Virus record (IMG/VR): IMGVR_UViG_2547132273_000013
Length of the DNA stretch: 20,662 nt
Origin: a virus
Lineage: Duplodnaviria > Heunggongvirae > Uroviricota > Caudoviricetes
Reading direction: 5' to 3' (one strand)
Of the stretch, positions 1-20,433 are shown one piece after another. Every line of letters begins with the position of its first letter. The stretch's first letter is position 1. The notes beneath the pieces were generated by a model, which ran no database searches, was not told the origin of the DNA, and saw nothing but the letters and a program-made list of their open reading frames with translations. The position numbers and the translations under genes are program-made.

Positions 1-19
1 AAACCGAGGTTTTGGATAA
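1..19. other. Partial gix-like site-specific recombination (DNA invertase crossover) site, truncated by the window edge
   Basis: Bases 1-19 (AAACCGAGGTTTTGGATAA) match the AAACC-NN-GGTTT core plus right half-site of Gin/Hin/Cin-family sites as I recall them (Mu gix about TTCCTGTAAACCGAGGTTTTGGATAA). It lies inside the tail-fibre reading frame, at the position where Mu's constant S region meets the invertible G segment. Confidence 0.6.
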
Positions 20-515
20 ACAGCGGCTTATTGGGAATATCTGCTCCGTTCCGGTCTTTTGCCAGACGGGCATTGGCATTATCCATCGCAATTTTCACCG
101 CTTTTGCGGTGGCTGCCAGCGTTTCACTGGGGCTGTCAGTGGCACTGGTTAGCTGAACGAGTCCTTTTTTGTTCAGGCTGGCATCATAGATATCCAGATT
201 TTCACGTGCTGTACGCTGTGCTGATGCCCCGGCAGTTTTAATTTCGCTGAGGTTATTTTTTATCAGCAGCGCGTTATTGCTCATAATGGCTTTAATGGAC
301 AGTGCAAGCTGGTTTAATTTCGTTTTATCCGGTTGAATACCGGCTTCTTCCAGCGTGTTTAATAACTCCGCCTGCACAATATTAAACCAGTCCATGCCGG
401 GCCATGTGATAACATTATTCCCGTCACCTTCTGAAAACCAGCGAACGATAGCACTACGCTGGGCGGATACGGGCGGCATGACGGTTACGCCGCTGTCGTT
501 ATCAATATAAAACAT
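1..515 (-). CDS. S: Tail fibre protein, N-terminal constant part (Mu S-like); partial, continues beyond the window's left edge
   Basis: Minus-strand frame opens at ATG 513-515 and runs to position 1 without a stop. Translation begins MFYIDNDSGVTVMPPVSAQRSAIVRWFSEGDG and contains KGLVQLTSATDSPSETLAATAKAVK, a motif typical of P2 gpH / Mu S tail-fibre N-termini. Start overlaps the upstream gene stop (TAATG). Not in the ORF track because it has no in-window stop. Confidence 0.8.
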   Translation of the reverse strand, partial: MFYIDNDSGVTVMPPVSAQRSAIVRWFSEGDGNNVITWPGMDWFNIVQAELLNTLEEAGIQPDKTKLNQLALSIKAIMSNNALLIKNNLSEIKTAGASAQRTARENLDIYDASLNKKGLVQLTSATDSPSETLAATAKAVKIAMDNANARLAKDRNGADIPNKPLFIQNLG

Positions 516-1057
516 TAGTTATCTCCGTCATGGTAAACAAATTTATAAATCTGATGCGCGGGTTTATATTTCTCCAGTAAACATTCCAGCGCACCCGATT
601 CATAAACACGTAACGGCGTCAGAACATTATCCAGCACCGTTGCGTTGCGATAATTTTTAATACCGTAAATATTGACCTGCGTAACCCACTGGCCTTCTGT
701 GGAATCCGTCAGCCTGACGGTAAAACCGTACTGCGCAGCCAGCCATTCATAAAAGCGCCGACTCAGATTGCCGGTCATACGCATTTTATTCGCGGCAGCC
801 CGCTGGCGTTCGGACAGGGTGCCGTTTTCGCTGGTACAGTCCGGCAACCCCAGAAATGATTCCCACTCCCCCAGATACCAGCGGGATGTGGACGGGAAAC
901 GCTCCCGCAGCATTTGCCGCGCATCATCCGCCGCAGTGGCAATCACGTCGCTGATGGCCTGCGCCAGCGCAGATAATTTGCTGTCGGGGCTTTTATTCCA
1001 GGCAAGCCCTGACGGCAGTAATTGCAGAAAGGCCGTCTGATAGGGTGTTACAGCCAT
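515..1057 (-). CDS. R: Baseplate wedge/tail protein, Mu gp48 (R)-like, DUF2313 family
   Basis: 180-aa ORF placed between the baseplate J-like gene and the tail fibre, as in Mu. Start overlaps the upstream gene by 10 nt; stop overlaps the S start. Confidence 0.8.
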   Translation of the reverse strand: MAVTPYQTAFLQLLPSGLAWNKSPDSKLSALAQAISDVIATAADDARQMLRERFPSTSRWYLGEWESFLGLPDCTSENGTLSERQRAAANKMRMTGNLSRRFYEWLAAQYGFTVRLTDSTEGQWVTQVNIYGIKNYRNATVLDNVLTPLRVYESGALECLLEKYKPAHQIYKFVYHDGDN

Positions 1058-2130
1058 TCAATTGTCCCCGGTGTTAACAGTTCCGTATTCTCCGAACGCT
1101 GGATCTCTGTCGGGAAACGCACTTCAAAATCATCCAGACCGGTAACACCTGCCACCGCACGGATAATACGGGAGGGAGCAAGTGCGCCGCCCGGCGTCAC
1201 CTCATTAAAAAACATGGTATTAATGGCGTGGGTAATAGCCTGTTTCAGTTCGGCTGTCTTCGGTGATATATAAATCCGTGGATTTACCGGCTTTGCCTTT
1301 GGCGCAAATACAGTGACATTTACACCGTCAGGCTGTCCGACAATCAGACCGGTGATCGGGTCAGTATGACCGGCGATATAATCCGCCACGCGTTCCACGT
1401 CTGCCGGTTGTGGAAAAATATTGCTCCGGTTATCCATAACAAACGTCACCCCGACTGTGCCACCGCCTTTCCATGTCGGAAAACACCAGGCACGGGTAAC
1501 GCCGCTGACTTCACGTGCCCAGCGAACGTAATCAAACTGATTACCGCCGAACGGAGGGTACTGGACACGATATTCCAGCCGTGACAGCAGCTCCGCTGCA
1601 CTCTCAATATCAGCTCCACCGGAAAACCCTTTTACAGTGATGGCATCGGAAACAACACAGGCAACCGGAGTGATCAACGTTAAAAGGGTATTCTCACCGG
1701 TATTTCCTGCTTCACCGGCAGCCAGTGCGGTAACGGTAATTTCCGTCGTTCCTGCACGGTCAATCACAATGGCATCAGCCAGGCTGTAAACCACACCATC
1801 AGCACGCTGCCAGCGTGTACCGGCAGGAATGGTGGTCGCTGCCGATGTGGTGACAGTCAGCGGGCCGCTGGCGGCTGTCGCCTGTTTGCGGCGCACGCCC
1901 CAGAACCGGCAGTGCTCCAGCAACTCATCTTCATCTGCTGTCGACGGGATAATCTGCCGTCCAACCCATGAAATATGCTCGTGACAACCGGCAGCAAGGC
2001 CCGCCTGAGCATAAGCAATGGCGCTCAGCGTTTTTTCACGGGCCTGAGGCCAGCTACCCGGCAGGCGCTGTTCAATATTCTGTTCTGTACGGGCAATCAG
2101 CGATGATAATGTCGGTGGTGAATAAGCCAT
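1048..2130 (-). CDS. W: Baseplate J-like protein (Mu gp47 / W; P2 gpJ, T4 gp6 class)
   Basis: 360-aa ORF with synteny and size matching baseplate J-family proteins; directly abuts the gp46-like gene. Confidence 0.85.
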   Translation of the reverse strand: MAYSPPTLSSLIARTEQNIEQRLPGSWPQAREKTLSAIAYAQAGLAAGCHEHISWVGRQIIPSTADEDELLEHCRFWGVRRKQATAASGPLTVTTSAATTIPAGTRWQRADGVVYSLADAIVIDRAGTTEITVTALAAGEAGNTGENTLLTLITPVACVVSDAITVKGFSGGADIESAAELLSRLEYRVQYPPFGGNQFDYVRWAREVSGVTRAWCFPTWKGGGTVGVTFVMDNRSNIFPQPADVERVADYIAGHTDPITGLIVGQPDGVNVTVFAPKAKPVNPRIYISPKTAELKQAITHAINTMFFNEVTPGGALAPSRIIRAVAGVTGLDDFEVRFPTEIQRSENTELLTPGTIEWL

Positions 2131-2568
2131 TTAAACCCCGTTAAATGCTGCTTTAAACTCATAAGGAATAACGGAACCATCCGGTAATGTCAGTGCAATG
2201 TAGAGGTATAACCAGCCCTGATGTAACTGTTCCGCTCTGACGTTAATCGCACTTACCCGGCCCGCTGTTTTCAGCCATTCCAGCGCCTCTTCGGCATACC
2301 CTCTGGCGCGTTCCAGCGTATCCGGTGTGGCTTTTTCACGTGATAACAGCCACAACCGCGAACCGATGGGGCGGTCGCGGTAACTGTCCCCCCACCATCC
2401 ACGGCGATCATCTGAACCATCCGGCAGCGTGTCAGAATCCAGCGCGCGCCGGTCGGTAAACAGGGAGATTGTCACATCGGTTGTCAGGCTGTCGTCGGTC
2501 AGCATATCAATGCCATCCTGTGCAATATCGCCGCGCCCGTTCGTCCAGATAATGGCTAAATCGGTCAT
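2131..2568 (-). CDS. V: Baseplate wedge protein, Mu gp46 (V)-like (Phage_GP46 family)
   Basis: 145-aa ORF; 4-nt overlap with the upstream spike gene; position conserved relative to Mu. Confidence 0.8.
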   Translation of the reverse strand: MTDLAIIWTNGRGDIAQDGIDMLTDDSLTTDVTISLFTDRRALDSDTLPDGSDDRRGWWGDSYRDRPIGSRLWLLSREKATPDTLERARGYAEEALEWLKTAGRVSAINVRAEQLHQGWLYLYIALTLPDGSVIPYEFKAAFNGV

Positions 2569-3158
2569 TGCATTGGCCCCGTGGTTCCGCCGCTGTCGCC
2601 ACGGTGGATATGCTTATCCGTCGATTTGCCATTGATGATGGCATCCGGGGCAGTAATATTGCTGTCGAACTGGCTTTTACCTTTAACGCCCAGACCTTTC
2701 TGGATCTCAACGTCGCCGGTAAACGTGGTTCTGGGTGTGTCAACGGTCATACTTTCATCAGCGTAAACCTCGACCGTTTTACAGGTAATGATGCAGCGTC
2801 CGTCCTTTGTCAGCCTGATACGATGCCCCTCATGGTGGTAAATGCCTGCATCACCCGGTTCAAGATTTGTCGGGCGGTAGCGGCGGTCTTCCACCACAAC
2901 AGCAATCCCCTGATCACGTTGTGCGCCTACACAGGCAATCAGCGCCTCTGCGCCCGGCAGGGGAACGCTGAAATGTCCGTAATTTTGCAGGCGCTCCACT
3001 TCATCGGATTCCTCATCATCCAGCAGACCGACCTGCAGGTTCTGAACTTTTCGCCCGTCGTTAATCACGTTAACAACGGCACGCGCAAGCATCAGGCGCA
3101 CACGACGCATCAGCGGTGTCAGCAGGCGGTTCATGGCGGAATCATTTACTCTTTCCAC
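2565..3158 (-). CDS. Q: Baseplate central spike protein (Mu gp45 / Q; P2 gpV-like)
   Basis: 197-aa ORF; C-terminus ...GKSTDKHIHRGDSGGTTGPMQ carries an H-x-H motif of the kind that coordinates metal at spike apexes; lies between the hub-like and gp46-like genes. Confidence 0.8.
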   Translation of the reverse strand: MERVNDSAMNRLLTPLMRRVRLMLARAVVNVINDGRKVQNLQVGLLDDEESDEVERLQNYGHFSVPLPGAEALIACVGAQRDQGIAVVVEDRRYRPTNLEPGDAGIYHHEGHRIRLTKDGRCIITCKTVEVYADESMTVDTPRTTFTGDVEIQKGLGVKGKSQFDSNITAPDAIINGKSTDKHIHRGDSGGTTGPMQ

Positions 3159-4285
3159 GGCGGCGTTTTCTCCGGGTGTCTGCGATAATAATCTTCAACC
3201 AGCGCATCAATACCGCCGTTACTGTCGCCGCCTTTCCTGTTTTTGCGGTCGCTTTCAACCGGCACCAGAAAGCCTTCGCGTGGTACAAGGCTGACGCGGG
3301 TTTTCAGCCCATCCTGGTCATTCAGTATCAGGGTGACTTTGCTGACCAGTAATTCTGTGGTTTTGATGGCATATTTCGAGGCATCAATAGTGACCAGCAG
3401 GTTCGGCATCCAGAGTTGCCCGTCCTTGCGTGTCCATCCGTCAATTTCTGCCTCAAAGGTGATGGATTTTGCCAGTCTGCGGCGTTGCTCACGCAGGGCG
3501 CGGGCCTGTGCATCCTTCGCCGTAATTTTGCTGTCGGCAATGATGATCATCGGTCTGTAACGGGTCACATCACTGTCAGTGGCGGTCCCTTTCCGGGAGA
3601 CGATACTTTTCGCATCAATATCATCACCCTCAGCACCATTTGCGCGGGCATACCCCTTGACGGTGTATTCGCTGAACCGGTCGCGGAAGTCTTCCTCAAA
3701 ATCCAGTGTCAGCAGATTTTCTCCGAGAACCAGCTCATCAGTGGCTGTGCTGGCAGCCCGGCTGAATACCAGCTCTCCGGCGGCATTGCTGGTCATCAGT
3801 ACACCGCGTGCGCGGGAGGCACGCACCAGCGCCTCATAAACGGTTTCTGAATGGTCCAGCGTGAAGCTGGGAAAAACTGCCGAACTTTCCTTATCGGAAA
3901 GCTCCCAGCGAACGGTAACGCCATAAGGGGTGCACAGGTCACGCGCAATCTGCTCCAGTGTGCGGTTTTTCCATTGTCCGCCACTGTAAACGGCAGCACA
4001 GTCAATCAGGTCAGCCGTTTTGTCACGTCCGGCGATAGTGATTTTCATACTGTCAGCGGTCATCTGGCGTCGCCGTGAATCGATATAACCGGTGCAGACA
4101 ATCTGCCCCTCGATTTCCAGCGTGAACTTCTTCCCCGGTGCCAGCCCGGATAAATCCGTGCCCGGTGGCACGTTCACCCCCAGCTCAAAATATCCGGCTA
4201 CGGATTCAATCGAGCGGGTGACAGAGACTGACGTCCAGCCGGTAAAAAGCCTGCCATCCGTTCGCAGCGTGACGGTATTACTCAT
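3146..4285 (-). CDS. P: Baseplate hub protein (Mu gp44 / P; P2 gpD 'late control D' family)
   Basis: 379-aa ORF; start preceded by GAGGTG, a Shine-Dalgarno-like sequence, and overlaps the end of the N-like gene; order N-P-Q as in Mu. Confidence 0.85.
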
Positions 4286-5765
4286 TAATCACCTCAATAC
4301 TGACACCACCGGGAACAAACAACGGGTTGCTGATACCGTTCCTGCGGGCCAGCCGTTGCCAGTTCCGGCTGTTTCCGGTGAACCGGTACAGTGCAACCAT
4401 TGCCGGGAGCGTTTCTGGCAGGTGGTGTGATTCACTACCCGCCAGTTGCAGCCCGCGTTTTTCCAGGTCGGCAACAACCAGCAGACGCAGTTGCGTAAGC
4501 TGAACACTGTCTGTCGAAAAACCCTGCTCAGATGCCGTCAGAATGACGCTATCCAGCGCCGCCCCCAGCATGGCAGTGGTTTTTTCGATATCGGACACGC
4601 TTTCAAATACCGGGGGCGTGGCTGTGCTACTGTCTGAAAAGGATACTGGTGAAAAGCCGCCGTCCGGGGTTATCCCGGTTAACTGCAACTGGCTTTGTGT
4701 GACCGTGGACGATGTGCTGCTGGCACCACTGGCGATGCCGGTTGTTGTGACTGATACATCCAGCACTGGTGCGCGGGCGGCATTATCCATCTGACGGCTG
4801 GAATCCAGTGCCGCAGTCAGTGCCTGGCTTGCTGCCTCCGCCCGGTATGTCTGTGCTGCTGCCAGCATGACGTAGTTCAGTGTGGCAATATTTTTTTCTG
4901 CAACCGGGCTGCTGTATGAAGTGGTAATGGCACCTTGTCTGTCAGTGGTGGAGACATGTCGGCTTTCGAACCGCTGCGCCAGACGGTTCCAGGTGGAAAA
5001 TGCTGTCCGGGTATCGCATAACGATGAAACGCCGGATAACGCCCCCATCAGTGAAGATGTCAGCATGGCTGGTTTATTTATCAGGCCGGTCACAGAACCT
5101 TTCATTGCAGAAAGTGCCCCCATCAGGCCGCTGACAGTCTGGGTGATCCCCAGATTATCCACTGCATCACAGATATCATCGATGACACCGGTGACAGCAT
5201 CCATTACGGCTGTTGCCGCCGCTGTGCCATCTTTTACGGTCTGCCAGACAGAGGACAACGTATCCCCCAGCGAACCGGTTACAGCAACGGCCTGCGCAGA
5301 TACGGCTGTACTGGTGTCTGTTTCTGCGTCCGGGGCTGTATCCTGCAACGACGGATAAACGGTAACGGTGAACGCGTAATAATTCAGTTCATCCGCTTTA
5401 GTACGGCATTCCCATGAATCCACCATGACGTCCACAGTGCCGAACTCTGGATGCACCAGTTCGCCGCTGCCCGGTGCATCAAGAGCATCCATCAGCGCAC
5501 CCGCTTCATCTCTGGCAGTCTCTGCGTTGCTGTTCAGAATGCAGATGCTGAATGTGCGGGAGCGAAGTTTTTTCCCCAGGTCATTGACACCGCCGGTATC
5601 ACGTAACGGGTACTCGCGTTTAACCAGACGACGTCCGCCAGCCTGTTTTTGCTCCTCAATGACGAGAAACGGCACGTTACGGAACGTGCCTTTGCCGGTT
5701 GTTTTCTTACCACCGCCGATTTTATCCCGGACAGAATTAACGGCATTTAAAGCATCTTCAAACAT
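4278..5765 (-). CDS. N: DNA circularisation protein N-like (Mu gp43), baseplate hub-associated
   Basis: 495-aa ORF immediately downstream of the tape measure gene; Ser/Thr-rich central region; synteny with Mu N. Confidence 0.8.
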
Positions 5766-5769
5766 GGTT

Positions 5770-7881
5770 TTACCAGCCTGTAATGTAGTTATCGCCCGCG
5801 TAAATATTCAGCCCCATACCATCCTCGGTGACGCGGGAACTGGTCAGACGTAATCCTTCGCCAAGCTCGACGCGCAGCGATGCTTCCGCATTCACTTTTT
5901 GCTCCTGCGGTTCCCTTTCCGGGGCCGTCCATTTCTGATACAGGTCAGTCACAAAACCGCCCAGATATTCCCCGGCGACACTGCCCAGCGTGGCACCGGC
6001 AACCGTGCCCAGCGGTCCGGCAAGGCTGCCAACGGCACCGCCGAGCCAGGCGCCGGCAGTGCTGCCAATTGCTCCGGCTTTTTCATGAGTTGATGCCTGT
6101 TCATCCATCAGAACGGGAGCAAGCTGGAGTGCCCCCATCACCGGACCGCCAAGACGTGACAGTGCACGACCCGCGCCTTTCCCCATCCAGCCCAGCGCCC
6201 CGGCCCCTTTTGTCACAACCCGACCAATGGCACTGTCTGCGAGTTTGTTTCCGATACCGGAAAACAACCCGCCAACGGTACGACCGGCACCAGCCAGCTT
6301 TCCGATTGTTCCCGTAACCAGTTGTCCGGCAGCACTGCCTGCAAGCCTGCTCAACAGACCGGATTTGCCGGGTAAAGGTAACGATGCGTGCCGTGTGGCA
6401 CCCGGCGCACCGGGAGATGGCAATGCCAGTACCGGGGACGGTGCAGGTAATGCCAGTGGTTTCGGTGCTGGTAATGCGGGAACAGTGCGTGGGGCCGGAA
6501 GTGCCAGCGGTTGTAGCCCGGACAGCAATAACGGCTGGCGGGGCAATGCTGCCGGTGTTTTACCTCCGTATCGGGAAAATCCGCCATATCCACCGAACCC
6601 GTTGGGCCAGTTAGTCACAAAAACGCGCTGAACTGTCAGTTCCCGCAGTAGTTCTGTAGCAGGTAGCGCATCCGGTGCCGGAATGCCTGTCTGTCCATGT
6701 TTGCGTTTTCGCATCCAGCGCCACATACGACGCCCGGTTTTGAACGGATAGCTGGCAACCTGCCATGATGGCTTCGCCACGGCCCAGCCCGCCCTCAGTG
6801 CTTTATTGGCAAGCCAGACAGACACCAGAACAGCAGCCAGTTTTTTCAGGCTGACAATATTCTGGTCAACCCATGCCAGCGCATCTTTACCCGGTTTCAG
6901 CCAGCGCCATAACTCCTGTGCCGCAGCTTTCAGGGTTCTGAATGTGGTCAGGAATTTCTGACCAATTTCATCAGCCCGTTTATCAAGCTCCCCGGATTTA
7001 TCCGCCGCATCGTGCCAGTTAAGCACCCGGCGCATCTCATTCTTGATTTCTTCAAAAGGGCCGCTGTTCATCACCCTGACGGCAAACTCGTTCCAGTTAG
7101 CCTCCATCTGTGCCGTCATCCCTGACCACGAGTTCATGGCTGCGGCCTGTGCGCCTTTTGATTGTTCTGACAGCGCCCTGAATACCATCAGGATCGACTT
7201 CAGCCCCAGTTTGCCTTTTTCCCCTTGCTTTCGGATTTCCTTAACGTCTTTACCCAGCGCATCAGCCAGTGTCTGGTAAACGTTGATACCGTAGCCGGTC
7301 AGCAGGTTGGCATCTGCCGCTGTGATTTGCTGGCGGGCGAACATCTGTTTCAGTTGCAGCGAGGCCCCCTGCGCAGCAGATAAATCCCAACCGTGTAATG
7401 CCCCCTGATCCTGCAACATGGTGATGAACTGCTTTGTCTGTTCATCCGTCATGCCAAAGCCTTTCGACGAGCGAATTTCATCCAGAACGCCGCCCAGCCC
7501 CCACGTGGTATCCTTCGCGTTCTGCTTCGCCCATGCCATCATTGCCTGCGCTCTGGCCTTATCGCCGTGATACAGCGAGTTCATGGCTATAATCTGCTGC
7601 TCACGTTGAGCTGCTGCGCTGATAAACAGTTTATTGGCGGTGTAACCCGCCCCGGCAACACCCAGCGCCCCGGCTGACAGCATTCGGAATGTACGGGTTG
7701 AGAGAGAACCCATTTTGTCGATGGCACCAGACACGCGCACCACTTCCATACGCAGGGCACGCAGGGAACTTTGCCCACTACGGGACAGGGCGTTTATCTG
7801 GTTCGAATACTGGCGGGAACGCCGGGAAAGATTGCCATTAAGGTCAATAATGACTGACGCTTTTAAGCGTTTCCCGGTCAT
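5770..7881 (-). CDS. Y: Tail tape measure protein (Mu gp42 / Y-like)
   Basis: 703-aa ORF, the largest in the tail module. Alpha-helical-type N-terminal half, internal proline-rich degenerate repeats (LPAP...), glycine-zipper-rich C-terminal region. AGGAAA precedes the ATG at 7879-7881. Confidence 0.9.
6371..6519 (-). repeat. Degenerate tandem repeat of about 24-27 bp inside the tape measure gene, encoding L-P-A-P-type repeats
   Basis: Plus strand shows repeated ggtaatgccagt-like units (ggcaatgccagtaccgg / ggtaatgccagtggttt / ggtaatgcgggaac / ggaagtgccagcgg). Protein reads [39 protein letters not shown]. Confidence 0.7.
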
Positions 7882-8025
7882 AGATATTTCCTGATTTAAC
7901 GGTGATATTGAGAGAGGGTTTTAGCCTGCTGGCAGTGCCGGAAAAAGCGGGACAGCGGGAGAGACAAGGCCCATTCCGGGCCACTTTTCAGAATAACGCC
8001 AATCGCTGTCGCCGCTTTCTCAATA

Positions 8026-8460
8026 TCATTCCGGCACCGCAGCCACTCGCCCCCGTTCTTGCGTCAGCGATGCCGCCACAGCCATGTCGTGCATCTCTGT
8101 AGCCAGCGACAGACGCTGGAAGTCATCAACAGACAGCTTGCGCATCAGCGCCAGCGATAACGGGCCTTTGATGCAACCCACGCTGGCAATCTGTCGGCGC
8201 AGCATTTCCAGTCCCATCCGGGACGGGGAACTGACCAGCACCGGACCTTCCTTGCTCATTACCAGCTTTTCAGCAGCCGCCTGGGCATCAATCAGATCGC
8301 CTGCGGTTAGTTCACGCAGTGTCACGTCATACTGCATTTCAGTCTCGTCACCGGTGCCGAACGGCAGGCCGTCTTTCAGTTTCAGCCCACCGGACTGAAG
8401 CTCAGCTACAATACTGTCACGCAGTTCCTGTGCTTCAGGACTTAAATTCATTTCGTCCAT
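8026..8460 (-). CDS. Tail assembly chaperone-like protein (Mu gp41-like)
   Basis: 144-aa acidic ORF between tail tube and tape measure genes, the conserved position of tail assembly chaperones. Followed by a 144-bp gap before the tape measure start. Confidence 0.65.
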   Translation of the reverse strand: MDEMNLSPEAQELRDSIVAELQSGGLKLKDGLPFGTGDETEMQYDVTLRELTAGDLIDAQAAAEKLVMSKEGPVLVSSPSRMGLEMLRRQIASVGCIKGPLSLALMRKLSVDDFQRLSLATEMHDMAVAASLTQERGRVAAVPE

Positions 8461-8469
8461 TGTTTCCCC

Positions 8470-8826
8470 TTATGCAATGCGTTTGCTTTGTTTTGCCATC
8501 AGTACCAGCGAAATTTCGCCGCCGTCGTTTTTCGGTTCATCTGCCTGCCAGGCATTCGCCATCATCCAGGTTTCACCGGTGTCTGCCTGAAACTCTGCCG
8601 TGATGTTTTCCCAGCCGATGATTTCATCCAGACCGATATCACCACCGCCCGGAATTTTGCATTCCAGCTTTGCGGCACGAGGTTTACCTTTCCAGCCATA
8701 AACCCGCGAGCCGGTCACTTCTTCACGGGTGATGCCGGAAGGCGTGAAGGAGGCGCCTTCCATCGTTTCAAGCTCCATGCCATTGACACGGATGAACGCC
8801 ACCCCCTGACGCTGATTTCCAGCCAT
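8470..8826 (-). CDS. M: Tail tube protein (Mu gp40 / M-like)
   Basis: 118-aa ORF directly downstream of the sheath gene; strong Shine-Dalgarno sequence AAGGAG 6 nt upstream of the ATG. Confidence 0.85.
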   Translation of the reverse strand: MAGNQRQGVAFIRVNGMELETMEGASFTPSGITREEVTGSRVYGWKGKPRAAKLECKIPGGGDIGLDEIIGWENITAEFQADTGETWMMANAWQADEPKNDGGEISLVLMAKQSKRIA

Positions 8827-8835
8827 AAATGCTCC

Positions 8836-10323
8836 TTACAGAATGAACTGAACTTGTGCCGCGAAAATGCGGAACTGGTTAATCAGATTCGGGCCGCACA
8901 GCACATCAAGGCGGTCTTTGTCGTCCTTGTTACGTGCCACATACAGCTCCTCTTTGAACGTGTCGAAATCCTCGACCAGTCCGGCGTTTTCCCATTCTTC
9001 AAACAGTGCCAGCAGCTCCGTTTTGATCACGGATGGCGTCACCACGGCCTGACCGGTGGCAAAGCGGGTGCCATCACTTGCCAGCTTGTAGTTCGGGAAT
9101 TTCTGCGTGATGCGGGTTCGCAGTGAATAACGCAGATAACTCAGCGTGGCGATGGTATTCACGTTCAGATAAGACGGATCACTGTCACCGTACTTGTTTG
9201 TGCGGTACATCGTGATCATGCGTTCAATCTGCATTTCACCACCATCATTCACGTTAAACGTGGAGATGCCGTCAAACAGCAGCGCATTACGTTCTGACCA
9301 AGTGAAACGATCCCCCACCGCAGGCGGCATTCTTCCGGGCAACGTCAGCGTCTGGAGAGGACGCGCCGGGTCGATGGAAAGCGCCTGGCTGGCAACGGCA
9401 CACAGTGTGGCGGCGTACAGATATGACGGTTCCGGTGCACCGGCAATCCCCATACAGGAGATCAGATGGTCGTTACGACTGACACCAAACGTGGAAATAT
9501 CCCCATACGTGCCGGACAGCACTGTCACGGCAAAGCCATCAGCCTGATTGACCGGTCCCCAGCGTTCCTGCAATTCAGTGCGTAACAGATTCAGGTTCGG
9601 TTCATCGGTATAGGGCATCACAATATATTTGTATTGCAGATCGCCCATTCCCGCGATACTTGCGCTGATATCCGGGTTGCCATTTTTCCCGGAGGCGGCT
9701 TTGAATGCCGTGATAATCCCGTAAGGGGTGGTTTCACCCGCGTAATAGTTCCAGCGCACATCCACGGCAGATAATGCACCCGTAAATTTTGCACTCAGAA
9801 CCACATCTGCATGGGTGTCATCATCCCCGCTGTCTGCGCGAACTTCTGCCGTCACCGGTAAATCAGGCTGGCCTTTGATTCGGGCAACCAGCAGGTCAGC
9901 CAGCGCCGCTCCCGTTGCACCTGCTGCGACAGATACCGCCAGTCGCTGACCGGCAATGTAAGTCACAAGCGAGCCGTTTTCGCCTGCCGTTCCTGACAGT
10001 GAAATTTCACCGACAGCAGCATTACCGGTGCCGTTCCCCTGCGGAATACACCACAGCTCCGCCACGCGGTTAGCGTTCAGGAATGCATCTGCCATCAGTG
10101 CCAGCATGGAACCCTGACCAAACGCCGCACTGGCCTGTGAGCCGGAACGGATACGGACAGGCACGTTTGGTGCCGCACTGGCTTTACTTCCGCTTTGCCC
10201 GAACATCAGCACGCGCTGACGGGGTGCCGGTGTTCCGCTGACGGCATTACTGTTATCAAATTCGATATACGTCAGAGGAACGCGAACATCTGACGGGATC
10301 GCGTTAAATGAAATATCGCTCAT
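8836..10323 (-). CDS. L: Contractile tail sheath protein (Mu gp39 / L-like)
   Basis: 495-aa ORF; size and position (sheath-tube-chaperone-tape measure) typical of myovirus tail modules; ATGA overlap with the upstream gene. Confidence 0.9.
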
Positions 10324-10526
10324 TTCGATTTACTCCGTTTTTTCGGCGCAGTGTCGGTATCATCCGCCGTGTTTTCGGTGCTCCCGACTTCAACCACATC
10401 ACCGGCTGCAAGGCGACGTATCCAGAAACTGTTACGGGGCTTTTCTTCTCCCTCCGGAGCCAGTAATTTCATCGTGAGCGGGTCACGGATGGCTTTTCCC
10501 GCTGCGGGTTTAATTTTCAGCATCAT
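10320..10526 (-). CDS. Small protein, Mu gp38 (K)-like (DUF2635-type)
   Basis: 68-aa ORF with a Lys-rich C-terminus, immediately upstream of and coupled to the sheath gene; position matches Mu gp38. Confidence 0.6.
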
Positions 10527-11058
10527 GATCCTTTTCCTGATTCACATTGATATGTGCGGCAAATTCCGGGGTTTCGTCCGGGAATTTCCAGGTCTGCCAG
10601 TGGCGCTCGTAATCATCCAGCGAGTCCATATCCACACCGGACGGTAACGGCGTGATGCCACTAAAATAGATACCGTATAATGCGACTCCTGAATTACTCT
10701 GGGCATCGGTATACAGGTTGCGGACGCTGGTCAGACGCAGGCCGGTTGTGGGGCCAAATGTATGTCCGTTCATTCCGGCAATCAGGCGCTCAACAATCTG
10801 GTAAATCCCCGGACGGTCGGTTTCCCGACCGTTCAGCATTTTTGCCACCACGTAAAACACCCAGCGGCTTTCCACTTCACGGCGGGTGCGGCCTTCACCG
10901 CAGCCCAGCCACGCCAGATAAACAGACGGCGGCGCAATCAGGATTTTTTTAATTGCGGCATCAGACCAGGTGCCGGGATGCGTTTTTACATCCCGCAGCG
11001 TCCGTCCGAACAACCCACGAACAGCATCGAGCAAGGCAGCTTCTGTGGTGGCAATCAT
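10510..11058 (-). CDS. Virion morphogenesis / neck (tail terminator-type) protein, Mu gp37 (J)-like
   Basis: 182-aa ORF in the head-tail joining block; synteny with Mu gp37. Confidence 0.65.
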   Translation of the reverse strand: MIATTEAALLDAVRGLFGRTLRDVKTHPGTWSDAAIKKILIAPPSVYLAWLGCGEGRTRREVESRWVFYVVAKMLNGRETDRPGIYQIVERLIAGMNGHTFGPTTGLRLTSVRNLYTDAQSNSGVALYGIYFSGITPLPSGVDMDSLDDYERHWQTWKFPDETPEFAAHINVNQEKDHDAEN

Positions 11059-11480
11059 CAGATAAACCCCTTCTGGTTGCGGGAGAAAATGGCTGCGTCA
11101 GACTGTACCTCAACCAGATTTTCGCTGACCGGTTCAACACCATGCACATCTGCGCCAAGCGGTAATTTTCCGTCGAGAACCACCCCCAGCCACCTGATGG
11201 CGTCTTTGTAACGTTGTGTGCATTGCTCTGTTGCCTGTTCATCACACAGGTAATAAAAAGCAATATCGCAACAAACACGAACCAGCGTTACAGGAACCAC
11301 TGACAATGGCAGCTGGTAACGGGGACTGATATAACCGTCGATAAGCGCGCTGGCATCCTGTAACGCCTGCGTAATCAGTGCATCATCTGGTTCAAAGTTG
11401 TCCGATTTATCAGCGGTCAGTTTGTCCAGATTGCTGCGCTGGTAACGCTTTACCATGTCGTCAAGAGAGGCATAGCTCAT
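11058..11480 (-). CDS. Head completion / connector-type protein, Mu gp36-like (DUF1320 family)
   Basis: 140-aa ORF; ATGA-type coupling with neighbours; position matches Mu gp36. Confidence 0.65.
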   Translation of the reverse strand: MSYASLDDMVKRYQRSNLDKLTADKSDNFEPDDALITQALQDASALIDGYISPRYQLPLSVVPVTLVRVCCDIAFYYLCDEQATEQCTQRYKDAIRWLGVVLDGKLPLGADVHGVEPVSENLVEVQSDAAIFSRNQKGFI

Positions 11481-11887
11481 GCTTGTGCCTCAGCCAGTGC
11501 TGCTTTGATTTGTGCCGCAGTGACGTTTTCCCCCAGCACCGCACTGACCGCTTTCACTTTGGGTTCCCCCCCTGCGGTAAAGTGTTCCGGGTTTGCCTGA
11601 TCCAGACCGGCAACGGTCGCACGGATACGGGCGTTCAGATCGCCCACACCCAGAACGTCCAGCCCCCCAGCCTCAGCGAGCGTTTCTGCTGCCGTTGTCG
11701 ATACAACAGACAACACGCTGTCGGCACGGATGATCGCCAGTTGTTCTTCGGTGACTTCCACTGTGTTTTCGCCACGCGTAAAGGCGATGCCGGCGCGGCG
11801 GTAGACCGGGCGAAGACATTTAATAATCGCCGTGCAAGTGATGCGAGAAGTGTCCAGCCGTTGTGAATTAAGCGAAGTGCCTGACAT
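11477..11887 (-). CDS. Hypothetical protein, Mu gp35-like
   Basis: 136-aa ORF starting at ATG 11885-11887, preceded by a strong Shine-Dalgarno sequence (AAGGAGGAG, about 7-nt spacing). Lies directly downstream of the major head gene and its hairpin. Confidence 0.6.
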   Translation of the reverse strand: MSGTSLNSQRLDTSRITCTAIIKCLRPVYRRAGIAFTRGENTVEVTEEQLAIIRADSVLSVVSTTAAETLAEAGGLDVLGVGDLNARIRATVAGLDQANPEHFTAGGEPKVKAVSAVLGENVTAAQIKAALAEAQA

Positions 11888-11921
11888 AACACATGCTCCT
11901 CCTTTTCCTTTAAATCAGGTT

Positions 11922-11945
11922 AAAAGGCGGCCTGAACCGCCTTTT
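11922..11945 (-). terminator. Stem-loop (9-bp perfect stem, 6-nt loop) just after the major head gene stop; candidate partial intrinsic terminator or mRNA-stabilising hairpin
   Basis: aaaaggcgg-cctgaa-ccgcctttt: perfect inverted repeat seen directly. On the minus-strand transcript it sits 9 nt after the T stop codon and is followed by UUUU, then the strong ribosome-binding site of the next gene. Confidence 0.45.
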
Positions 11946-11953
11946 AACGACGG

Positions 11954-12871
11954 TTACAGGTAGTCAGCGACAACCAGTTGCAGCTTACCCTTCATCTCGT
12001 TGGAGACGGTGGTATTGCCATCCGCGAACAGCTCACGGTTAAGCAGTTGCTCTGCGGATTTTTCCAGTCCGACCGGTACAACGATATGCGTCGGCTTCAG
12101 GCCCAGCTTCTTACCGCCATCACCTTCAAAAGAACGCATCAGTTGCCAGCCCTTCCAGAGGTTATCCAGCGTCAGATCGCCTTTTACCGCGACAGCCATC
12201 TGCCAGAAGCCGTAACCGGCAGCACGGCGGGCGCTGGCACCAAACAGGAACTCGTTATCCATAAAAACGTGGTCGTCATCGATACGGGTACGTGCGACCA
12301 GTTCCGGTTTGCGGCGCTCCTGGAAAATCAGCGGTTTGACTGCGCGGGAGCAGTCCAGCAGATAGAATGGCAGACCGCTGAAGCTGTCCTGCTCAACGAT
12401 GTTGGAGGTATTAACCGCGCTGCCCGTGCCGTCCACATTCGGATATACCGGATGCTCTTTGTCGAAGAAGTTCTGACCGTCATAGCAGGGCTGGGTAAAG
12501 CCATCTTTCAGAAGTTTAAAAATCAGCTCATCCGGCTGAACTGCCGCAGAACGGCCCATCTCCTGAAAAATCGGCGCATAAATACCCAGATTGTCATCCT
12601 CGAAGTCATCACGGGAAATACCCACGGTGCCTTCAAACGTTTTATTAGCGATGGAGTAGCCATGCGCTTCCATTTGCTGAATGGTTCGCTTACCCACCCA
12701 TTCTTTCAGGGTCGGGAATTTACCCAGCCAGCCATAGGTATTGCTGCGGGTGGAGGAGTTCACCACCATTGCAATTTTGCTGTACTGCGACGGGGCGTCT
12801 TCAAGACCGCCCTGAAAATCCTTACGCCAGGAGGTCATCAGGGCTTTAATGGATGCCGGGGTGACAATCAT
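11954..12871 (-). CDS. T: Major head (capsid) protein, Mu T-like
   Basis: 305-aa ORF immediately downstream of the protease/scaffold gene (ATGA overlap); size and position as Mu gp34; followed by a hairpin. Confidence 0.85.
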   Translation of the reverse strand: MIVTPASIKALMTSWRKDFQGGLEDAPSQYSKIAMVVNSSTRSNTYGWLGKFPTLKEWVGKRTIQQMEAHGYSIANKTFEGTVGISRDDFEDDNLGIYAPIFQEMGRSAAVQPDELIFKLLKDGFTQPCYDGQNFFDKEHPVYPNVDGTGSAVNTSNIVEQDSFSGLPFYLLDCSRAVKPLIFQERRKPELVARTRIDDDHVFMDNEFLFGASARRAAGYGFWQMAVAVKGDLTLDNLWKGWQLMRSFEGDGGKKLGLKPTHIVVPVGLEKSAEQLLNRELFADGNTTVSNEMKGKLQLVVADYL

Positions 12872-13419
12872 TTTTCTTGTTCCTGTTTCATTTTCAGATA
12901 CTCAGCCTCAGTAATGCCGAGCGCCTTCACTGCTGCTTTTTCATCAGCAGACAGCACCGCCACCGCCGTTTTTTCCTGCGACGGGTTTTGTACCGTTGTG
13001 GTCTGCATGGCAGATAACGCAGCGATGGGCTGTTTTTTCTCAAGCTGTGCCGACAGTGCCGCCACGCCAATCTGACCACCAAGCTGTTCCAGGTAAGTGC
13101 GTTCGCTTTTGAAAATGCGGCCTTCCTGTTCCGCCTTGTCCAGAACGGCGCTCAGGCTGGCGGTGGCACTTTGCGCGGTGGCCTGAGCCAGCTCATCGAG
13201 CACGGCGTTGTAGCTTTCCACCGGGACGTATTTCGTCAGGTCAACGGCGGCTTTCTGTGCCTTTTCCAGTTCGGCGGATAACGACGCCACTTTTCCGGCA
13301 TCTGTTTCGAGCGCATCAAGCGCACTCAGGGCCGCGCTGGCCTGTTCATCAGTGATGTCTGCATTTTCGGGGACAGTTACCCCAAGACGCGCAAGTAGCT
13401 TGCGCAGCGTTTCATTCAT
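12868..13419 (-). CDS. Putative nested in-frame scaffold protein (Mu Z-like) from an internal start within the I-like gene
   Basis: Internal in-frame ATG at 13417-13419 (MNETLRKLLARLG...) is preceded by CAGGAG, a Shine-Dalgarno-like sequence, at about 7-8 nt. Mu is known to express scaffold Z from an internal start in I. Confidence 0.4.
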   Translation of the reverse strand: MNETLRKLLARLGVTVPENADITDEQASAALSALDALETDAGKVASLSAELEKAQKAAVDLTKYVPVESYNAVLDELAQATAQSATASLSAVLDKAEQEGRIFKSERTYLEQLGGQIGVAALSAQLEKKQPIAALSAMQTTTVQNPSQEKTAVAVLSADEKAAVKALGITEAEYLKMKQEQEK

Positions 13420-13968
13420 GGGTTTGTTCTCCTGTTGAAGGATGTCGGGAAGGTCTGCCGCCAGTGCGGTCAGCTTTTTCATGCCGGTGGCACCGGGATC
13501 ATTGGTCAGCGCAGCAAGGCGGATTTGCAGTACCGCACCGGTGGCGGTGTCATACGGAAAAACCGCAGAGAGATAACCAAATTCGCCGTCATCGATGCGC
13601 TGCTGGGCTGCCGCTGTCCAGCGTGGGTGGATAAATAACCCTTCACCTTCACGCCACTGCATTTCATCGGCGTTAAACCAGCCAGCCGCGACCAGTTGTT
13701 CCGGGGGTAATCCTTTGTCCTTACGCAGCTGGTTATGCTCGTAATCAATCAGCACGTCCTGGTTAAGTGCGCGGATACCTTCAATCAGGCGTCCGGCAAT
13801 TTCTCCGTCGATGAACCAGCCCTGACCAGTTGTTACATCAAACGGGCGACCGTCACGGGCACTGAAATAACCGGCAGGCAATAGCTGGCACCAGCCGTCA
13901 TCGTCAATGGACAGCGCACCCAGCGCAGCAATACCAATCGCGTGTTTTTTCATGTCCGGCCTGCTCAT
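12868..13968 (-). CDS. I: Prohead protease / scaffold protein, Mu I-like
   Basis: 366-aa ORF; N-terminal half protease-like, C-terminal half Ala/Glu/Gln-rich coiled-coil-like as expected for scaffold; upstream of the major head gene. The first ATG has a weak ribosome-binding site, so the true start may be the second ATG (MKKHAIG...). Confidence 0.85.
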   Translation of the reverse strand: MSRPDMKKHAIGIAALGALSIDDDGWCQLLPAGYFSARDGRPFDVTTGQGWFIDGEIAGRLIEGIRALNQDVLIDYEHNQLRKDKGLPPEQLVAAGWFNADEMQWREGEGLFIHPRWTAAAQQRIDDGEFGYLSAVFPYDTATGAVLQIRLAALTNDPGATGMKKLTALAADLPDILQQENKPMNETLRKLLARLGVTVPENADITDEQASAALSALDALETDAGKVASLSAELEKAQKAAVDLTKYVPVESYNAVLDELAQATAQSATASLSAVLDKAEQEGRIFKSERTYLEQLGGQIGVAALSAQLEKKQPIAALSAMQTTTVQNPSQEKTAVAVLSADEKAAVKALGITEAEYLKMKQEQEK

Positions 13969-14154
13969 CGTGATTTGTGAGTAGCCAGTGTGCGGGGAAC
14001 GGGAGAAAAGGCGGGGTTATCCAGTTTTAGTAATTCTGTAGGAGAAAGATAAAGGGGAAGGGAAATGCATGACGCCACCCCCTTCAAAACCCCTTCAAAA
14101 ACGCCACAGAACCTTCAAAAATTCTTTATCGCGTGATTTTATCTCTGTATCTGG
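13969..14154 (-). promoter_or_regulatory. Non-coding gap between the G-like and I-like genes: candidate late promoter (P_I equivalent) and possible strong-gyrase-site-like central element
   Basis: 186 bp without an ORF on either strand inside an otherwise tightly coupled operon. Contains three CCTTCAAAA repeats (14081-14089, 14092-14100, 14112-14120), two ACGCCAC copies and a C-rich tract (GGATAACCCCGCC on the transcribed strand). In Mu the G-I gap holds the C-dependent P_I promoter and the central strong gyrase site. Confidence 0.4.
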
Positions 14155-14625
14155 TTATTGCGTCAGAGCGGCGCTTACGCGTTTTCTGATGGCATCATAA
14201 ATTTCCTGCTCACCGCTCTTATCCAGCCCCATATAAGGACGTGCAGGAACACCTGCCGGACCGGGGGGCATATCAGGCTTACCGCCCCACTGATGAATAG
14301 CAGCGTAAACTTTTGGTGAGCCAATCAGGGCATAATCCGGGCCGTAAGCGGAAGTGATGCTGCGGGCCAGATCGCCATGCAGGGTAAGAATGCTACCCGG
14401 AACAAAACCATGCTCCTGACGCCATACCAGCCACGGGTCACTCCATGACTCCCAGCTCTGGCCCGTGTCCGGGTCTGCCTGCCGTTCAAAAGCCTGTTCA
14501 GAAGACGACAGCAATGCCGCAGCCATCACACGTGGCACATATCCGTCATGCGTTACCGTTGCCAGATCATCAAGAGCAAGCCGGATACGTCGCACATCCA
14601 CGGCAACGTTCATATCAAGACTCAC
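14155..14625 (-). CDS. G: Virion morphogenesis protein, Mu G-like
   Basis: 156-aa ORF; ATGA overlap with the upstream F-like gene; position matches Mu gp31. Confidence 0.75.
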   Translation of the reverse strand: MSLDMNVAVDVRRIRLALDDLATVTHDGYVPRVMAAALLSSSEQAFERQADPDTGQSWESWSDPWLVWRQEHGFVPGSILTLHGDLARSITSAYGPDYALIGSPKVYAAIHQWGGKPDMPPGPAGVPARPYMGLDKSGEQEIYDAIRKRVSAALTQ

Positions 14626-15977
14626 TTATTCACCTCCACATGCCCCTCCAGTACGTCAATCATCCCGTCAGCAATCGCGGCTTCAAGCGACTGTGCAGAT
14701 ACGCGGCTGATACTGACCAGCACATCCGCCCGGTCATTCTGCCTGCCGACTGTCTGTGATGTTCTGACCACAATTTGGGCCGTGCCGTCACGGGTTGCCA
14801 CAACGTACAGCAGCTGGTGATTTTTTCTGTCCCACAATACCGCCTGTGGTTCTGCCATCAGAGACGGCAGACGCTGTAAATCCTCTGCTTTCAGGGCAGC
14901 ATCAGCAGCGGTAGCCAGACTTTCTCCATTCATCACCAGTAAACGGGCTGGCAGATTCCCGGTGCGCTGATGTACGGCTTCAGCTACCGATTCTGTCATA
15001 AAACCTAGTGCCCGGATCTCACGCCCGGCGTGACGTGATTTCACCAGACGATTAAGCCACAGGGAAAAAGCAAGCTGGCGCTCCCGGCTGTTATTCAGCG
15101 TCTGTACAACCTGCTCACGCAGCTGCGCGTCACGAACTTCCACCAGTTTTCGAATCAGCGCCTGATCAGTACCGAATGCCGCCGAACCGGGGTTATATGA
15201 CCAGCCAACGTCCGGCGTCATTTTTACCCGACCGTTGTCAAACGTGGTTGACGATGTGCGGAAAATCTCTCCTGTGCTTTCATCCGTGCCGGCCTCCACT
15301 TCGCGGGTATCCATGAATGAAGCACCATAGCTGACCTGTAATCCCAGTTCTTTCATTCGGGCTGCAGACAGCGCACGAACGCGGCAGCGACAGCTCCAGC
15401 CATTGGGCGGGTAATGTGTCTGCCAGAAAATATCGTCATACCGGAAAATCATATTATGCAGCCGGGCATGCTCCGGGCGCGTTCTGCTGTCCATAACGGC
15501 GACATACTGCCAGTACGGATACAGGTCTGCGGTATTCATCATCTGTGCATAACGTCCCGCCCCGTACGCTGTACGGGTATTGACGTTATAAATGGTTGCC
15601 AGACGACGCGGACTGCCCAGTTCGATTTCCTTCGCGTTTCCCTCTGCATCCACGATGATTTGTTTTCCCCACCATCCGAGCTTTTGCAACCGGGGAGCCA
15701 GTGTGCGGGTAAATTCCTCACGGGTGATACCCTCACTGACAGCCCGCTCCACTTCCTCACGGATTGTGGTCAGGACATCCATCCGGGCAGCTTTGGCAAC
15801 GGTAAAGGCACGGGCGTGCGCGTCTGCCAGTTGTTCGTACCAGTTCCAGGTGATGTTGTAGCCTTTGGCACGGAAATACGCGACAGCCTCCTTTGGCGGG
15901 AGGCGTGCGGCATACGCCAGATCAATGGTCTGCTGCGGCATCCAGACGCCCCCATATATCGGCAACAAAAATGGCAC
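14622..15977 (-). CDS. F: Head morphogenesis protein, Mu F-like (MuF / SPP1 gp7 family)
   Basis: 451-aa ORF immediately downstream of the portal gene, the conserved position of MuF-family proteins. The longest ORF overlaps the portal end by 56 nt, so the true start may be the internal Met at MPQQTIDL. Confidence 0.8.
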   Translation of the reverse strand: MPFLLPIYGGVWMPQQTIDLAYAARLPPKEAVAYFRAKGYNITWNWYEQLADAHARAFTVAKAARMDVLTTIREEVERAVSEGITREEFTRTLAPRLQKLGWWGKQIIVDAEGNAKEIELGSPRRLATIYNVNTRTAYGAGRYAQMMNTADLYPYWQYVAVMDSRTRPEHARLHNMIFRYDDIFWQTHYPPNGWSCRCRVRALSAARMKELGLQVSYGASFMDTREVEAGTDESTGEIFRTSSTTFDNGRVKMTPDVGWSYNPGSAAFGTDQALIRKLVEVRDAQLREQVVQTLNNSRERQLAFSLWLNRLVKSRHAGREIRALGFMTESVAEAVHQRTGNLPARLLVMNGESLATAADAALKAEDLQRLPSLMAEPQAVLWDRKNHQLLYVVATRDGTAQIVVRTSQTVGRQNDRADVLVSISRVSAQSLEAAIADGMIDVLEGHVEVNK

Positions 15978-17460
15978 GGGTCAGCATGTCGATAAGTTCT
16001 GCATCATCCATCTGCGGATATAATGAAGCGGCTTTGTTCATGGCGGCTTCCGGGCCATCTTTCAGCACAGAAAGAATGACGGGTTTCAGCAGGGGATCAA
16101 CCGAACGCTGCCAGTCTTCCGGTGAAACGCCCATCCGGTCGATATCATCCTTCTGCGGGATATCATCAGCGGATAATGCGGCCTCTTTCTGCGAACCGTT
16201 ATCCGGGACAACCGGTTGTACAGTAAACACGGCCTCATCACCGACCGGCTGTGGAATATGAAGTTTTTCCTGTATCCAGGAGACCGGAATACGCATTCCT
16301 GCCGCCAGTTTCGGAATGGCGTCAGACAGTGCCGTAATATCACCCGCTTCACTGGTATCAAATACAATGCCCGGCAGGCGGTTAATATCAATGGTGCTGT
16401 TACTGTTCAGTGCCAGCAGGGGATAAATCAGGTCACGGTTAATACTGCGGGCAAGCTGGCCCACATCCGCGTTACGGATTTCCCGGCGAACCTCGTCATG
16501 CACTTCACCCAGCGACCGCGCACCTTTATCTCCGGCCTCTGTGGTCAGGGTGCCGCCCAGAATGGCTTTTGAAATCGCTTTTTCTGCCCAGCCAATCATC
16601 GCCATAAAGGGGTCTGACTGACCATCTGCGGCGCTCTGAAAATCCAGCGTCATCCCCATCGGAATAATGCCACCGGCACGTCGCCCGATATCCATCACGG
16701 CCTGCATCAGCGTGGCTTTCTCGCGGTTCGTGGAGCCGGTCGGATATTTACCGACGCGCATAGGGAGTCCGTAAATTTCCAGGAACTCCGCAAAATCACG
16801 CACGGAATAGTTTTTAAAAATAAAAGGCCAGATAAGCGTGCGCACAAGGCCATTGGTACCAACGTACCCGGTGCGGGATTTGGCCCGGTGCATAAACCAG
16901 CCGAACGGTTGCAGCTCCAGCCCGTGATAAGACGTATCACGCAGACGTAATTCGTTCAGATTGTCGGGGTTCGCGCAGAACAGCGCCGGATCGCGATGAT
17001 GCAGCGCCACCGGCACGCGCATTTTTCCCAGCCAGCCCCATTCAATCTCCTGCATGGAATAACCCTTGAGAATGGCATCACCGGCATCAAACAGGGCATC
17101 TTCAAACCACGCCGCATCATGCAGATATTCATTCAGCATGTCGGCGTCTTTTTTCTCCTGTGCGCTGGCATCACGTGCCGGAGCGATGCGCCATTCCAGC
17201 GCCTGAATGGCAAGGCGGCGTTTGCTCAGTTCGGAAAAAAGGTGGGTGTCCTTTTCTTCCATATCAAAGGCCAGGTCAGCCTGTGCTGTCAGATCACCGC
17301 GTTCGGCATCACGCAGCATCTGCGCGGCCCTGTTCGGCGTCACGCCACTGGAGGGATGCTCCTGCGTGCGCTTCATGACCATTGCCAGCTCATCGCTGCG
17401 GGTCTGCATTTCATCGTCAAAATCAAACGGCTGCCCGGAAATATCCAGAATACGGCCCAT
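15922..17460 (-). CDS. Portal protein (Mu gp29-like, DUF935 family)
   Basis: 512-aa ORF directly downstream of the large terminase with stop/start overlap (TAATG); size and position typical of Mu-like portals. Confidence 0.85.
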   Translation of the reverse strand: MGRILDISGQPFDFDDEMQTRSDELAMVMKRTQEHPSSGVTPNRAAQMLRDAERGDLTAQADLAFDMEEKDTHLFSELSKRRLAIQALEWRIAPARDASAQEKKDADMLNEYLHDAAWFEDALFDAGDAILKGYSMQEIEWGWLGKMRVPVALHHRDPALFCANPDNLNELRLRDTSYHGLELQPFGWFMHRAKSRTGYVGTNGLVRTLIWPFIFKNYSVRDFAEFLEIYGLPMRVGKYPTGSTNREKATLMQAVMDIGRRAGGIIPMGMTLDFQSAADGQSDPFMAMIGWAEKAISKAILGGTLTTEAGDKGARSLGEVHDEVRREIRNADVGQLARSINRDLIYPLLALNSNSTIDINRLPGIVFDTSEAGDITALSDAIPKLAAGMRIPVSWIQEKLHIPQPVGDEAVFTVQPVVPDNGSQKEAALSADDIPQKDDIDRMGVSPEDWQRSVDPLLKPVILSVLKDGPEAAMNKAASLYPQMDDAELIDMLTRAIFVADIWGRLDAAADH

Positions 17461-19106: not shown

Positions 19107-19160
19107 AGGTGAAAAATCCGGTATAAATTTTCAGGCTTTAATCAGTAAAAAGAGGTTGTG

Positions 19161-19376
19161 ATGAAAGAAAAACTGACCATTGATCAAAAAATTGAAATCG
19201 CAAAAATCGCGGGGCAGATTGTTAGCAGTGCGATAGAAACAAAAATTACCCCACACCAATTGATAAGCCGCAAAAATGCTGAAAGCGATGCCGTTTATTC
19301 GTACGATGATTTATTCGGGTATTTCTGTTCTTTTATTACCCGCACAGTCAGCGACACACCTGACCACTGCGAATAA
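19161..19376 (+). CDS. Hypothetical small protein (71 aa) on the opposite strand in an AT-rich inserted cassette; candidate moron gene
   Basis: ATG at 19161 preceded by AGAGG (19151-19155, 5-nt spacing); stop TAA 19374-19376. Hand-counted GC is about 30-43% across 19141-19380, visibly lower than the flanking phage genes. No family recognised from sequence. Confidence 0.45.
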   Translation: MKEKLTIDQKIEIAKIAGQIVSSAIETKITPHQLISRKNAESDAVYSYDDLFGYFCSFITRTVSDTPDHCE

Positions 19377-19542
19377 TATCTGCGGCGACCATCGGGCTGC
19401 TGATTAACTGCATCAGTAAAAATAACGCTTCAGCTTTCGTGACGATATGAATGTTGCCCTCCTCAGCCAGCGCCGCTTCGACGATGGGTTTGAGTTTCAG
19501 GGCAATATCCGCAGATGTTTTCTCTTCTGATTTAACAGCCAT
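19348..19542 (-). CDS. Hypothetical small protein (64 aa), translationally coupled downstream of the gp27-like gene
   Basis: ATG at 19540-19542 preceded by AGAGGAAAA immediately after the gp27-like stop (TAA 19556-19558); stop TGA 19348-19350. Its 3' end overlaps the 3' end of the plus-strand small gene by 29 nt. The longer track ORF (to 19662) would overlap the gp27-like gene, so the internal start is preferred. Confidence 0.4.
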   Translation of the reverse strand: MAVKSEEKTSADIALKLKPIVEAALAEEGNIHIVTKAEALFLLMQLISSPMVAADIIRSGQVCR

Positions 19543-19555
19543 TACATTTTCCTCT

Positions 19556-20134: not shown

Positions 20135-20142
20135 GCCTCCGT

Positions 20143-20433
20143 TCAGAAACGGGGACGTGGACGTTTGACACCGGAAACACGAGCCCGGCCTTCAGCCACA
20201 TCCTGACCACGGGAGGTCAGCGTCACGACATAAAAGCCACGCAGGTTTTCCACGGTGACAAGCTGCTGTTCTGCCAGCCAGTCAATCTGACCACGAACCA
20301 CATCACGTGAAACGTTATGCCCGTAGGCATCCAGGCAATCCTGCAAAATGGATTCGTTAGCCTCGTTATTGCAGTCCATTAGTGAACGCAGGATGACCAG
20401 GCGGCGATCCTGTGTCAGAATGTCGTCAATCAT
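20143..20433 (-). CDS. Small protein, Mu gp26-like (possible winged-helix DNA-binding partner of the packaging module)
   Basis: 96-aa ORF; ATGA overlap with the upstream gene; position immediately upstream of the gp27-like gene. Confidence 0.55.
   Translation of the reverse strand: MIDDILTQDRRLVILRSLMDCNNEANESILQDCLDAYGHNVSRDVVRGQIDWLAEQQLVTVENLRGFYVVTLTSRGQDVAEGRARVSGVKRPRPRF

Follow-up and report, generated by a model that had tools for sequence, protein, structure and literature searches.

Serine invertases include Hin, which acts on hix sites in Salmonella, Cin on cix sites of the P1 C segment, Pin on pix sites of e14, and Min of p15B. These enzymes use 26-bp sites with a 2-bp core. Sites of this family (the Din family) have AAACC..GGTTT symmetry, and inversion depends on Fis and an enhancer. 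Like phage Mu, P1, e14, and p15B switch tail fiber C-termini. The p15B system has multiple sites, and Hin inverts a promoter, not a coding segment.

In phage Mu, the invertase is Gin and the crossover site is gix. Gin performs staggered cleavage and strand exchange at the 2-bp gix core, and a Fis-dependent recombinational enhancer (sis) is located in the 5' part of gin (PMC3575834). The published native gix core is CTGTAAACCGAGGTTTTGGA (20 nt; PMC5175349). In the Mu annotation (AF083977, our L001), the order beyond gix is Sv, U, U', S'v, an inverted gix, gin, com, and mom. The full 26-bp Mu site consists of TTCCTGT, AAACC, GA, and GGTTTTGGATAA, in that order. It is one arm of a 34-bp perfect inverted repeat (41 nt at 93%), and the second arm is 3.0 kb away, adjoining gin.

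The DNA analyzed here (the window, a stretch of 20,662 nt) resembles Mu Gin-gix, which is also present in D108, SfMu, and the Yersinia phages vB_YpM_*. The likeness covers the 19 visible bases of the site, the constant part of tail fiber gene S, the position, the frame, the core, and gp45-gp48. The site itself shows no difference from Mu, whereas the rest of the window is mosaic. The variable part of this strain probably differs from that of Mu at the inner half-site. Mu-like E. coli prophages (SE11, W, MIN10, and others) share the same cassette layout, and the segment is found in either orientation across records. Their G segments are mosaic among them, with S proteins of 460-508 aa and site-to-site distances of 2.7-3.2 kb. 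The half-sites of the Hin, Cin, Pin, and Min systems differ from the exact gix found here. Because the window matches Mu gix exactly, those systems are relatives of the present one and not its identity.

Results

Window positions 1-19 read AAACCGAGGTTTTGGATAA and match phage Mu gix at 19 of 19 bases, which is 19 of its 26 bp. In Mu, the same 19-mer is located at L001 4746-4764, marking the end of the G segment on the S side. The whole window contains a single copy, even at ≤3 mismatches; at this threshold, 100 dinucleotide-preserving shuffles of the window gave an expectation of 0.00. The same search of the 20,662-nt window found no partner site. A search of the window for the family core AAACCNNGGTTT at ≤1 mismatch returned the site itself as the sole match. 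An Rfam scan and a tandem-repeat scan of the window each returned nothing.

The 19 bases represent the outer part of gixL, the S-side site, as judged from identity to Mu and from the published core (PMC5175349), of which window 1-16 covers 16 of 20 nt. In the alignment to Mu and relatives, AAACC (window 1-5) forms the final 5 nt of the inner half-site, on the side of the G segment; the other 7 bp of this half-site (TTCCTGT in Mu) fall outside the contig. Window 8-19 (GGTTTTGGATAA) is identical to the complete 12-bp outer, constant-side half-site of Mu. Such a half-site binds one Gin subunit, and by homology to Mu it would do so here. Between the two half-sites is the GA core dinucleotide (window 6-7), identified from the Mu annotation and from relatives; cleavage at this strand-exchange point is described for Gin (PMC3575834). 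The initial annotation had recognized the core and right half of a Gin/Hin-family site, and this reading was exact, with the GA core and the whole outer half-site present. It had also placed the site where the constant S region of Mu joins the invertible G segment. In agreement with this, the annotated "G-segment boundary" of Mu (L001 4752) falls on window base 7, in the core dinucleotide. Judged by its sequence, window 1-19 is the known gix of the Mu-type G-inversion system, which is textbook biology and not a new system.

The site is embedded in tail fiber gene S. On the minus strand, the frame that begins with ATG 515-513 runs through 171 codons without a stop until the window ends, and all of the 171 encoded residues are identical to the N-terminus (constant part) of Mu S, so the earlier placement of the site about 171 codons into a tail fiber frame was correct. 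The open frame, the identity to Mu S, and the Mu annotation define window 1-515 (minus strand) as Sc, the constant part of S (codons 1-171 plus 2 nt, open at the edge). The product has a Phage_fiber_2 repeat (PF03406, E = 2.5e-18). The C-terminal receptor-binding part of S would be supplied by the invertible segment. A GGAG ribosome-binding site for S at 523-526 (minus strand) was transferred from the annotated ribosome-binding site of Mu_49 (L001 5268-5271). The neighboring gene at 515-1057 (minus strand) encodes the gp48 baseplate wedge protein (PF10076 Phage_Mu_Gp48, E = 1.1e-27). The TAA of this gene and the ATG of S share one base (TAATG), and the arrangement is the same in Mu.

Sequence comparison identifies the window as a Mu-like E. 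coli prophage. The first 3 kb have 99.1% identity to Mu and D108, 98.7-99.1% to SfMu and several Yersinia Mu-like phages, and up to 99.5% to prophages of 46 complete E. coli genomes. Over the entire window, the closest relative is the prophage of E. coli SE11 (98.6% identity). Compared with Mu, the window is mosaic, with approximately 94% identity and an alignment that ends at 20433; identity is 96% over 1-6456 and 86% over 6464-8039. All long ORFs of the window are on the minus strand. It spans the Mu late region. A partial DUF2730-family gene precedes the terminase; head, tail, and baseplate genes follow, and the beginning of S closes the region.

Several other features of the prophage vary among relatives. 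The tape measure gene (window 5770-7881, minus strand) encodes 703 aa, compared to 690 aa in Mu and in 10 contigs whose gp47 is identical to that of the window. The alignment to Mu at the tape measure gene (6464-8039, 86% identity) has 20 gap openings. Megablast matched window 20434-20662 to SE11-type E. coli prophages and to none of Mu, D108, SfMu, and the Yersinia Mu-like phages; relative to Mu, the module upstream of gp26/gp27 has been exchanged. A 71-aa ORF at 19161-19376, between the terminase and gp27-like genes, is the sole gene called on the plus strand. Pfam gave no match for this ORF or for the adjacent 64-aa ORF (19348-19542, minus strand), and window 19208-19428 had no alignment to the SE11 prophage.

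The window is the whole of NCBI contig AEJX01000082.1 (assembly GCA_000208485.2; 20,662 nt; checked over window 7460-20662), and its base 1 is a physical contig end. Logan contig ERR273779_29 (61,938 nt) has window base 1 as its last base and shares 17,881 nt with the window with 0 mismatches. The exact tape measure and terminase proteins of the window are on only these two contigs of the collection. Because both contigs end at window base 1, the cassette is unreadable in this strain. The two assemblies differ in contiguity, possibly share reads or strain, and stop at the same base. The right edge of the window is also a physical end of AEJX01000082.1, inside the DUF2730-family gene (76 of 99 codons; window 20430-20662), and the Logan ERR273779 contig reads through it (L016 8378-8677). 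Past this edge, the prophage has two peptidoglycan hydrolase genes (L016 5675-8365; also SE11, L002 27739-30429). The first (GH108 and PG_binding_3, 186 aa) lies between mor and gp18, and the second (PF00959 lysozyme, 142 aa) follows a second Mor-family (C-like) gene.

Relatives of the prophage show what lies beyond the site. SE11 has a tail fiber gene, two opposed tail fiber assembly genes, an inverted fiber ORF, a recombinase, Com, and a gene at the Mom position; its segment orientation is opposite to the Mu reference record. The inverted partner site is approximately 3.0 kb away in both Mu and SE11. All 10 contigs with gp47 identical to that of the window have a gene with Resolvase and HTH_7 domains, and nine of them have both sites. 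The tenth has a run of N between the sites, and its S is called only as a 172-aa fragment. Apart from that contig, the gp47-identical contigs have S proteins of 460-508 aa, two opposed Caudo_TAP genes, Com, and Mom. The serine invertase gene (Resolvase catalytic domain and HTH_7) is also present in Mu, SE11, and E. coli W. Both sites are visible on the six IMG/VR contigs that are long enough, and the remaining IMG/VR matches stop before the expected partner. Partner-site spacing in relatives is 2.7-3.2 kb. An inverted partner site with core TC is present in all relatives that read through (Mu, SE11, both E. coli W assemblies, nine of the 10 gp47-identical contigs, and the six IMG/VR contigs), and no complete site tabulated among relatives has a core other than TC/GA. 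The initial annotation had predicted an invertible host-range cassette just beyond the left edge, with alternative fiber C-termini, assembly proteins, and a gin-like invertase, and the layout in relatives supports this prediction.

Two complete assemblies of E. coli W (NC_017664 and NC_017635), a 99.1% identical relative, are the same over the 7.6 kb compared except for an exact inversion. Between the sites, the 3016 nt of one assembly are exactly the reverse complement of those in the other. The flip in E. coli W is direct evidence that a site of this kind recombines.

Partner sites in relatives are often not identical. The inner half-site is GGTTT[A/G]CAGGAA, and the A/G base adjoins window base 1, outside the window. 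The two ends of one segment carry A and G, respectively, in six loci (L010, L011, L014, L018, L022, and L029). Site polymorphisms in Mu-like E. coli prophages comprise TTATCC/TTATCT, AAAACC/AAAACG, GGTTTA/GGTTTG, and ACAGGAA/ACGAGAA. Because S-side and gin-side variants exist, natural Mu-like prophages rarely have perfect-repeat partner sites, and the TC core is invariant.

Individual loci show further variation. In L007, L008, L010, L011, and L014 (at 12112-12137), the S-side outer half-site has TTATCCAAAACG next to the core, not ...ACC. TTATCT replaces TTATCC in most gin-side sites. The segment ends of SE11 (L002 3947-3990 and 6967-7019) are identical over at least 44 nt, which is longer than the 34-bp repeat of Mu. 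Contig L022 (IMGVR_UViG_2690316161_000025) has an exact 4776-nt direct duplication (270-5045 and 8390-13165), which begins 6 nt inside gix and spans the G segment, gin, com, and mom, resulting in three gix-like sites on the contig. This duplication may be an assembly artifact or a tandem arrangement.

The S product of the window (3-515, minus strand) belongs to a 90% protein cluster containing 223 distinct "tail fiber protein, partial" fragments from E. coli and Salmonella enterica. Among the 15 cluster members listed, most are 165-181 aa, with a range of 104-181 aa. Seven contigs encode the exact 171-aa product, and 516 encode one particular 165-aa form. By arithmetic, a 165-aa fragment stops at the repeat's outer edge, one of 171-172 aa reaches the first heterologous base on the inner side, and one of 176 aa extends to where the 34-bp repeat ends on its inner side. 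The cluster shows that assemblies break systematically at this invertible site and that Mu-type Sc-gix junctions are common in Salmonella too.

Discussion

Inversion of the G segment by Gin would proceed here as in Mu, from which the mechanism is taken over. Gin serine invertase, encoded just beyond the segment, would bind as dimers at gixL and at the inverted gixR approximately 3 kb away, and host Fis on the enhancer inside gin would activate the synaptic tetramer. Serine 9 would make staggered cuts at the core (window 6-7) in both sites. One dimer would rotate 180 degrees before the ends are religated, leaving the G segment flipped. The frame of Sc would thus continue into Sv (with U) in one orientation and into S'v (with U') in the other, so that the fibers come in two receptor specificities and the phage has two host ranges. 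For this strain, we infer the G segment, the partner site, and gin from relatives and from the break at window base 1.

Identity of the site as gix, Gin-type inversion, and a break caused by mixed orientations form one explanation, which taken as a whole is very probable. The sequenced DNA would hold both orientations of the segment, and the two inner half-sites of this strain would differ (A vs G) at the base adjoining window position 1. Reads would then diverge exactly after GGTTT, and both assemblies would stop there. A mixed-orientation culture would break assemblies at window base 1 because the adjoining base is A/G-polymorphic between partner sites in relatives. A pair differing at this base shares only 13-19 nt exactly, so a single-orientation culture would assemble straight through. 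In a mixed culture, divergence would come after GGTTT whatever the assembler, which fits the common end of the two assemblies. A/G heterology in this strain is plausible since G segments are mosaic, yet it is an assumption; it must be assumed because SE11, the closest relative overall, has identical inner half-sites.

The same rule was validated at another locus. Scaffold KE701743.1 (L008) has 2360 N exactly between two sites, and both of its contig ends stop directly after GGTTTAC. This is the point of the first differing base of the site pair in the nearest relatives of KE701743.1 (ACAGGAA vs ACGAGAA, L007 and L013). IMG/VR contig L031 starts at the same point, directly after GGTTTAC, and contig L021 ends at the edge of the 26-bp site.

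Short-read assemblies often break near this repeat regardless of the population, as the 223 partial S fragments and the 165-aa form on 516 contigs indicate. The site could thus be a real gix with a normal cassette, and the break could be an ordinary one, arising from inverted-repeat collapse, a second related fiber gene, or a drop in coverage, with no mixed population. The nearest relative, SE11, has a perfect repeat of at least 44 nt, which is consistent with collapse. Logan contigs are assembled at k=31 as a de Bruijn graph, which Minia3 then simplifies (PMC12424806). At this k, a contig that runs into a perfect inverted repeat of at least 31 nt should retain 30 nt of it. Only 19 nt are present, and plain collapse is therefore rejected for the Logan contig. 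If the repeat is perfect for only 19 nt, no 31-mer is common to both sites, and there would be no break without a mixture. A second copy of the fiber gene could explain the end only if it diverged precisely at window base 31, a position that does not vary in any relative examined. It would also break an assembler with another k at another base, and the two assemblies end at the same base. A second copy of the prophage was rejected as the cause since it would also have broken the 62-kb contig elsewhere. Overall, an ordinary assembly break appears unlikely.

The unseen DNA could also form a cassette of greater complexity, for example one with three or more crossover sites, like p15B Min or a shufflon, or it could encode a new receptor-binding module. 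Reads diverging at the base beside AAACC would then stem from multiple alternative partners. No observation favors this reading over the ordinary A/G heterology of relatives, and we consider it highly improbable.

Slightly more doubtful still is a relic, in which the site was kept in S, the invertase or the partner was lost, and the fiber was fixed in one orientation. DNA to the left of the window edge is unreadable in this strain, which leaves room for such a loss. However, the invertase gene is kept in all 10 gp47-identical contigs and in Mu, SE11, and E. coli W, and both sites are present in all of those relatives except the one contig with an N-run segment. A fixed, single-state locus with heterologous half-sites would also give no break at this base. 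Finally, the match could be a chance likeness of a coding sequence to the invertase-site consensus; in favor of this, the loose family core AAACCNNGGTTT has a chance expectation of 0.82 occurrences in a sequence this long. Chance is refuted by the 19/19 match to Mu gix (0.00 expected at ≤3 mismatches) and by the homologous position of the site in DNA 99.1% identical to Mu.

Mixed orientations arising from a Gin-type inversion thus remain the preferred explanation of the contig end. The locus is the classic phage Mu host-range switch, and its biology is already known. What it adds concerns how such loci appear in databases. At this locus, database records titled "tail fiber protein, partial" are artifacts that arise when assemblies break at the invertible segment, and they do not represent real short proteins. 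In a draft contig, the end base inside gix marks the first difference between the partner half-sites, which hints that the sequenced culture held both orientations. The position of a contig end inside gix therefore reads out partner-site heterology and probably also a mixed-orientation population. Active inversion could be detected without reads by searching existing assemblies for this contig-end signature.
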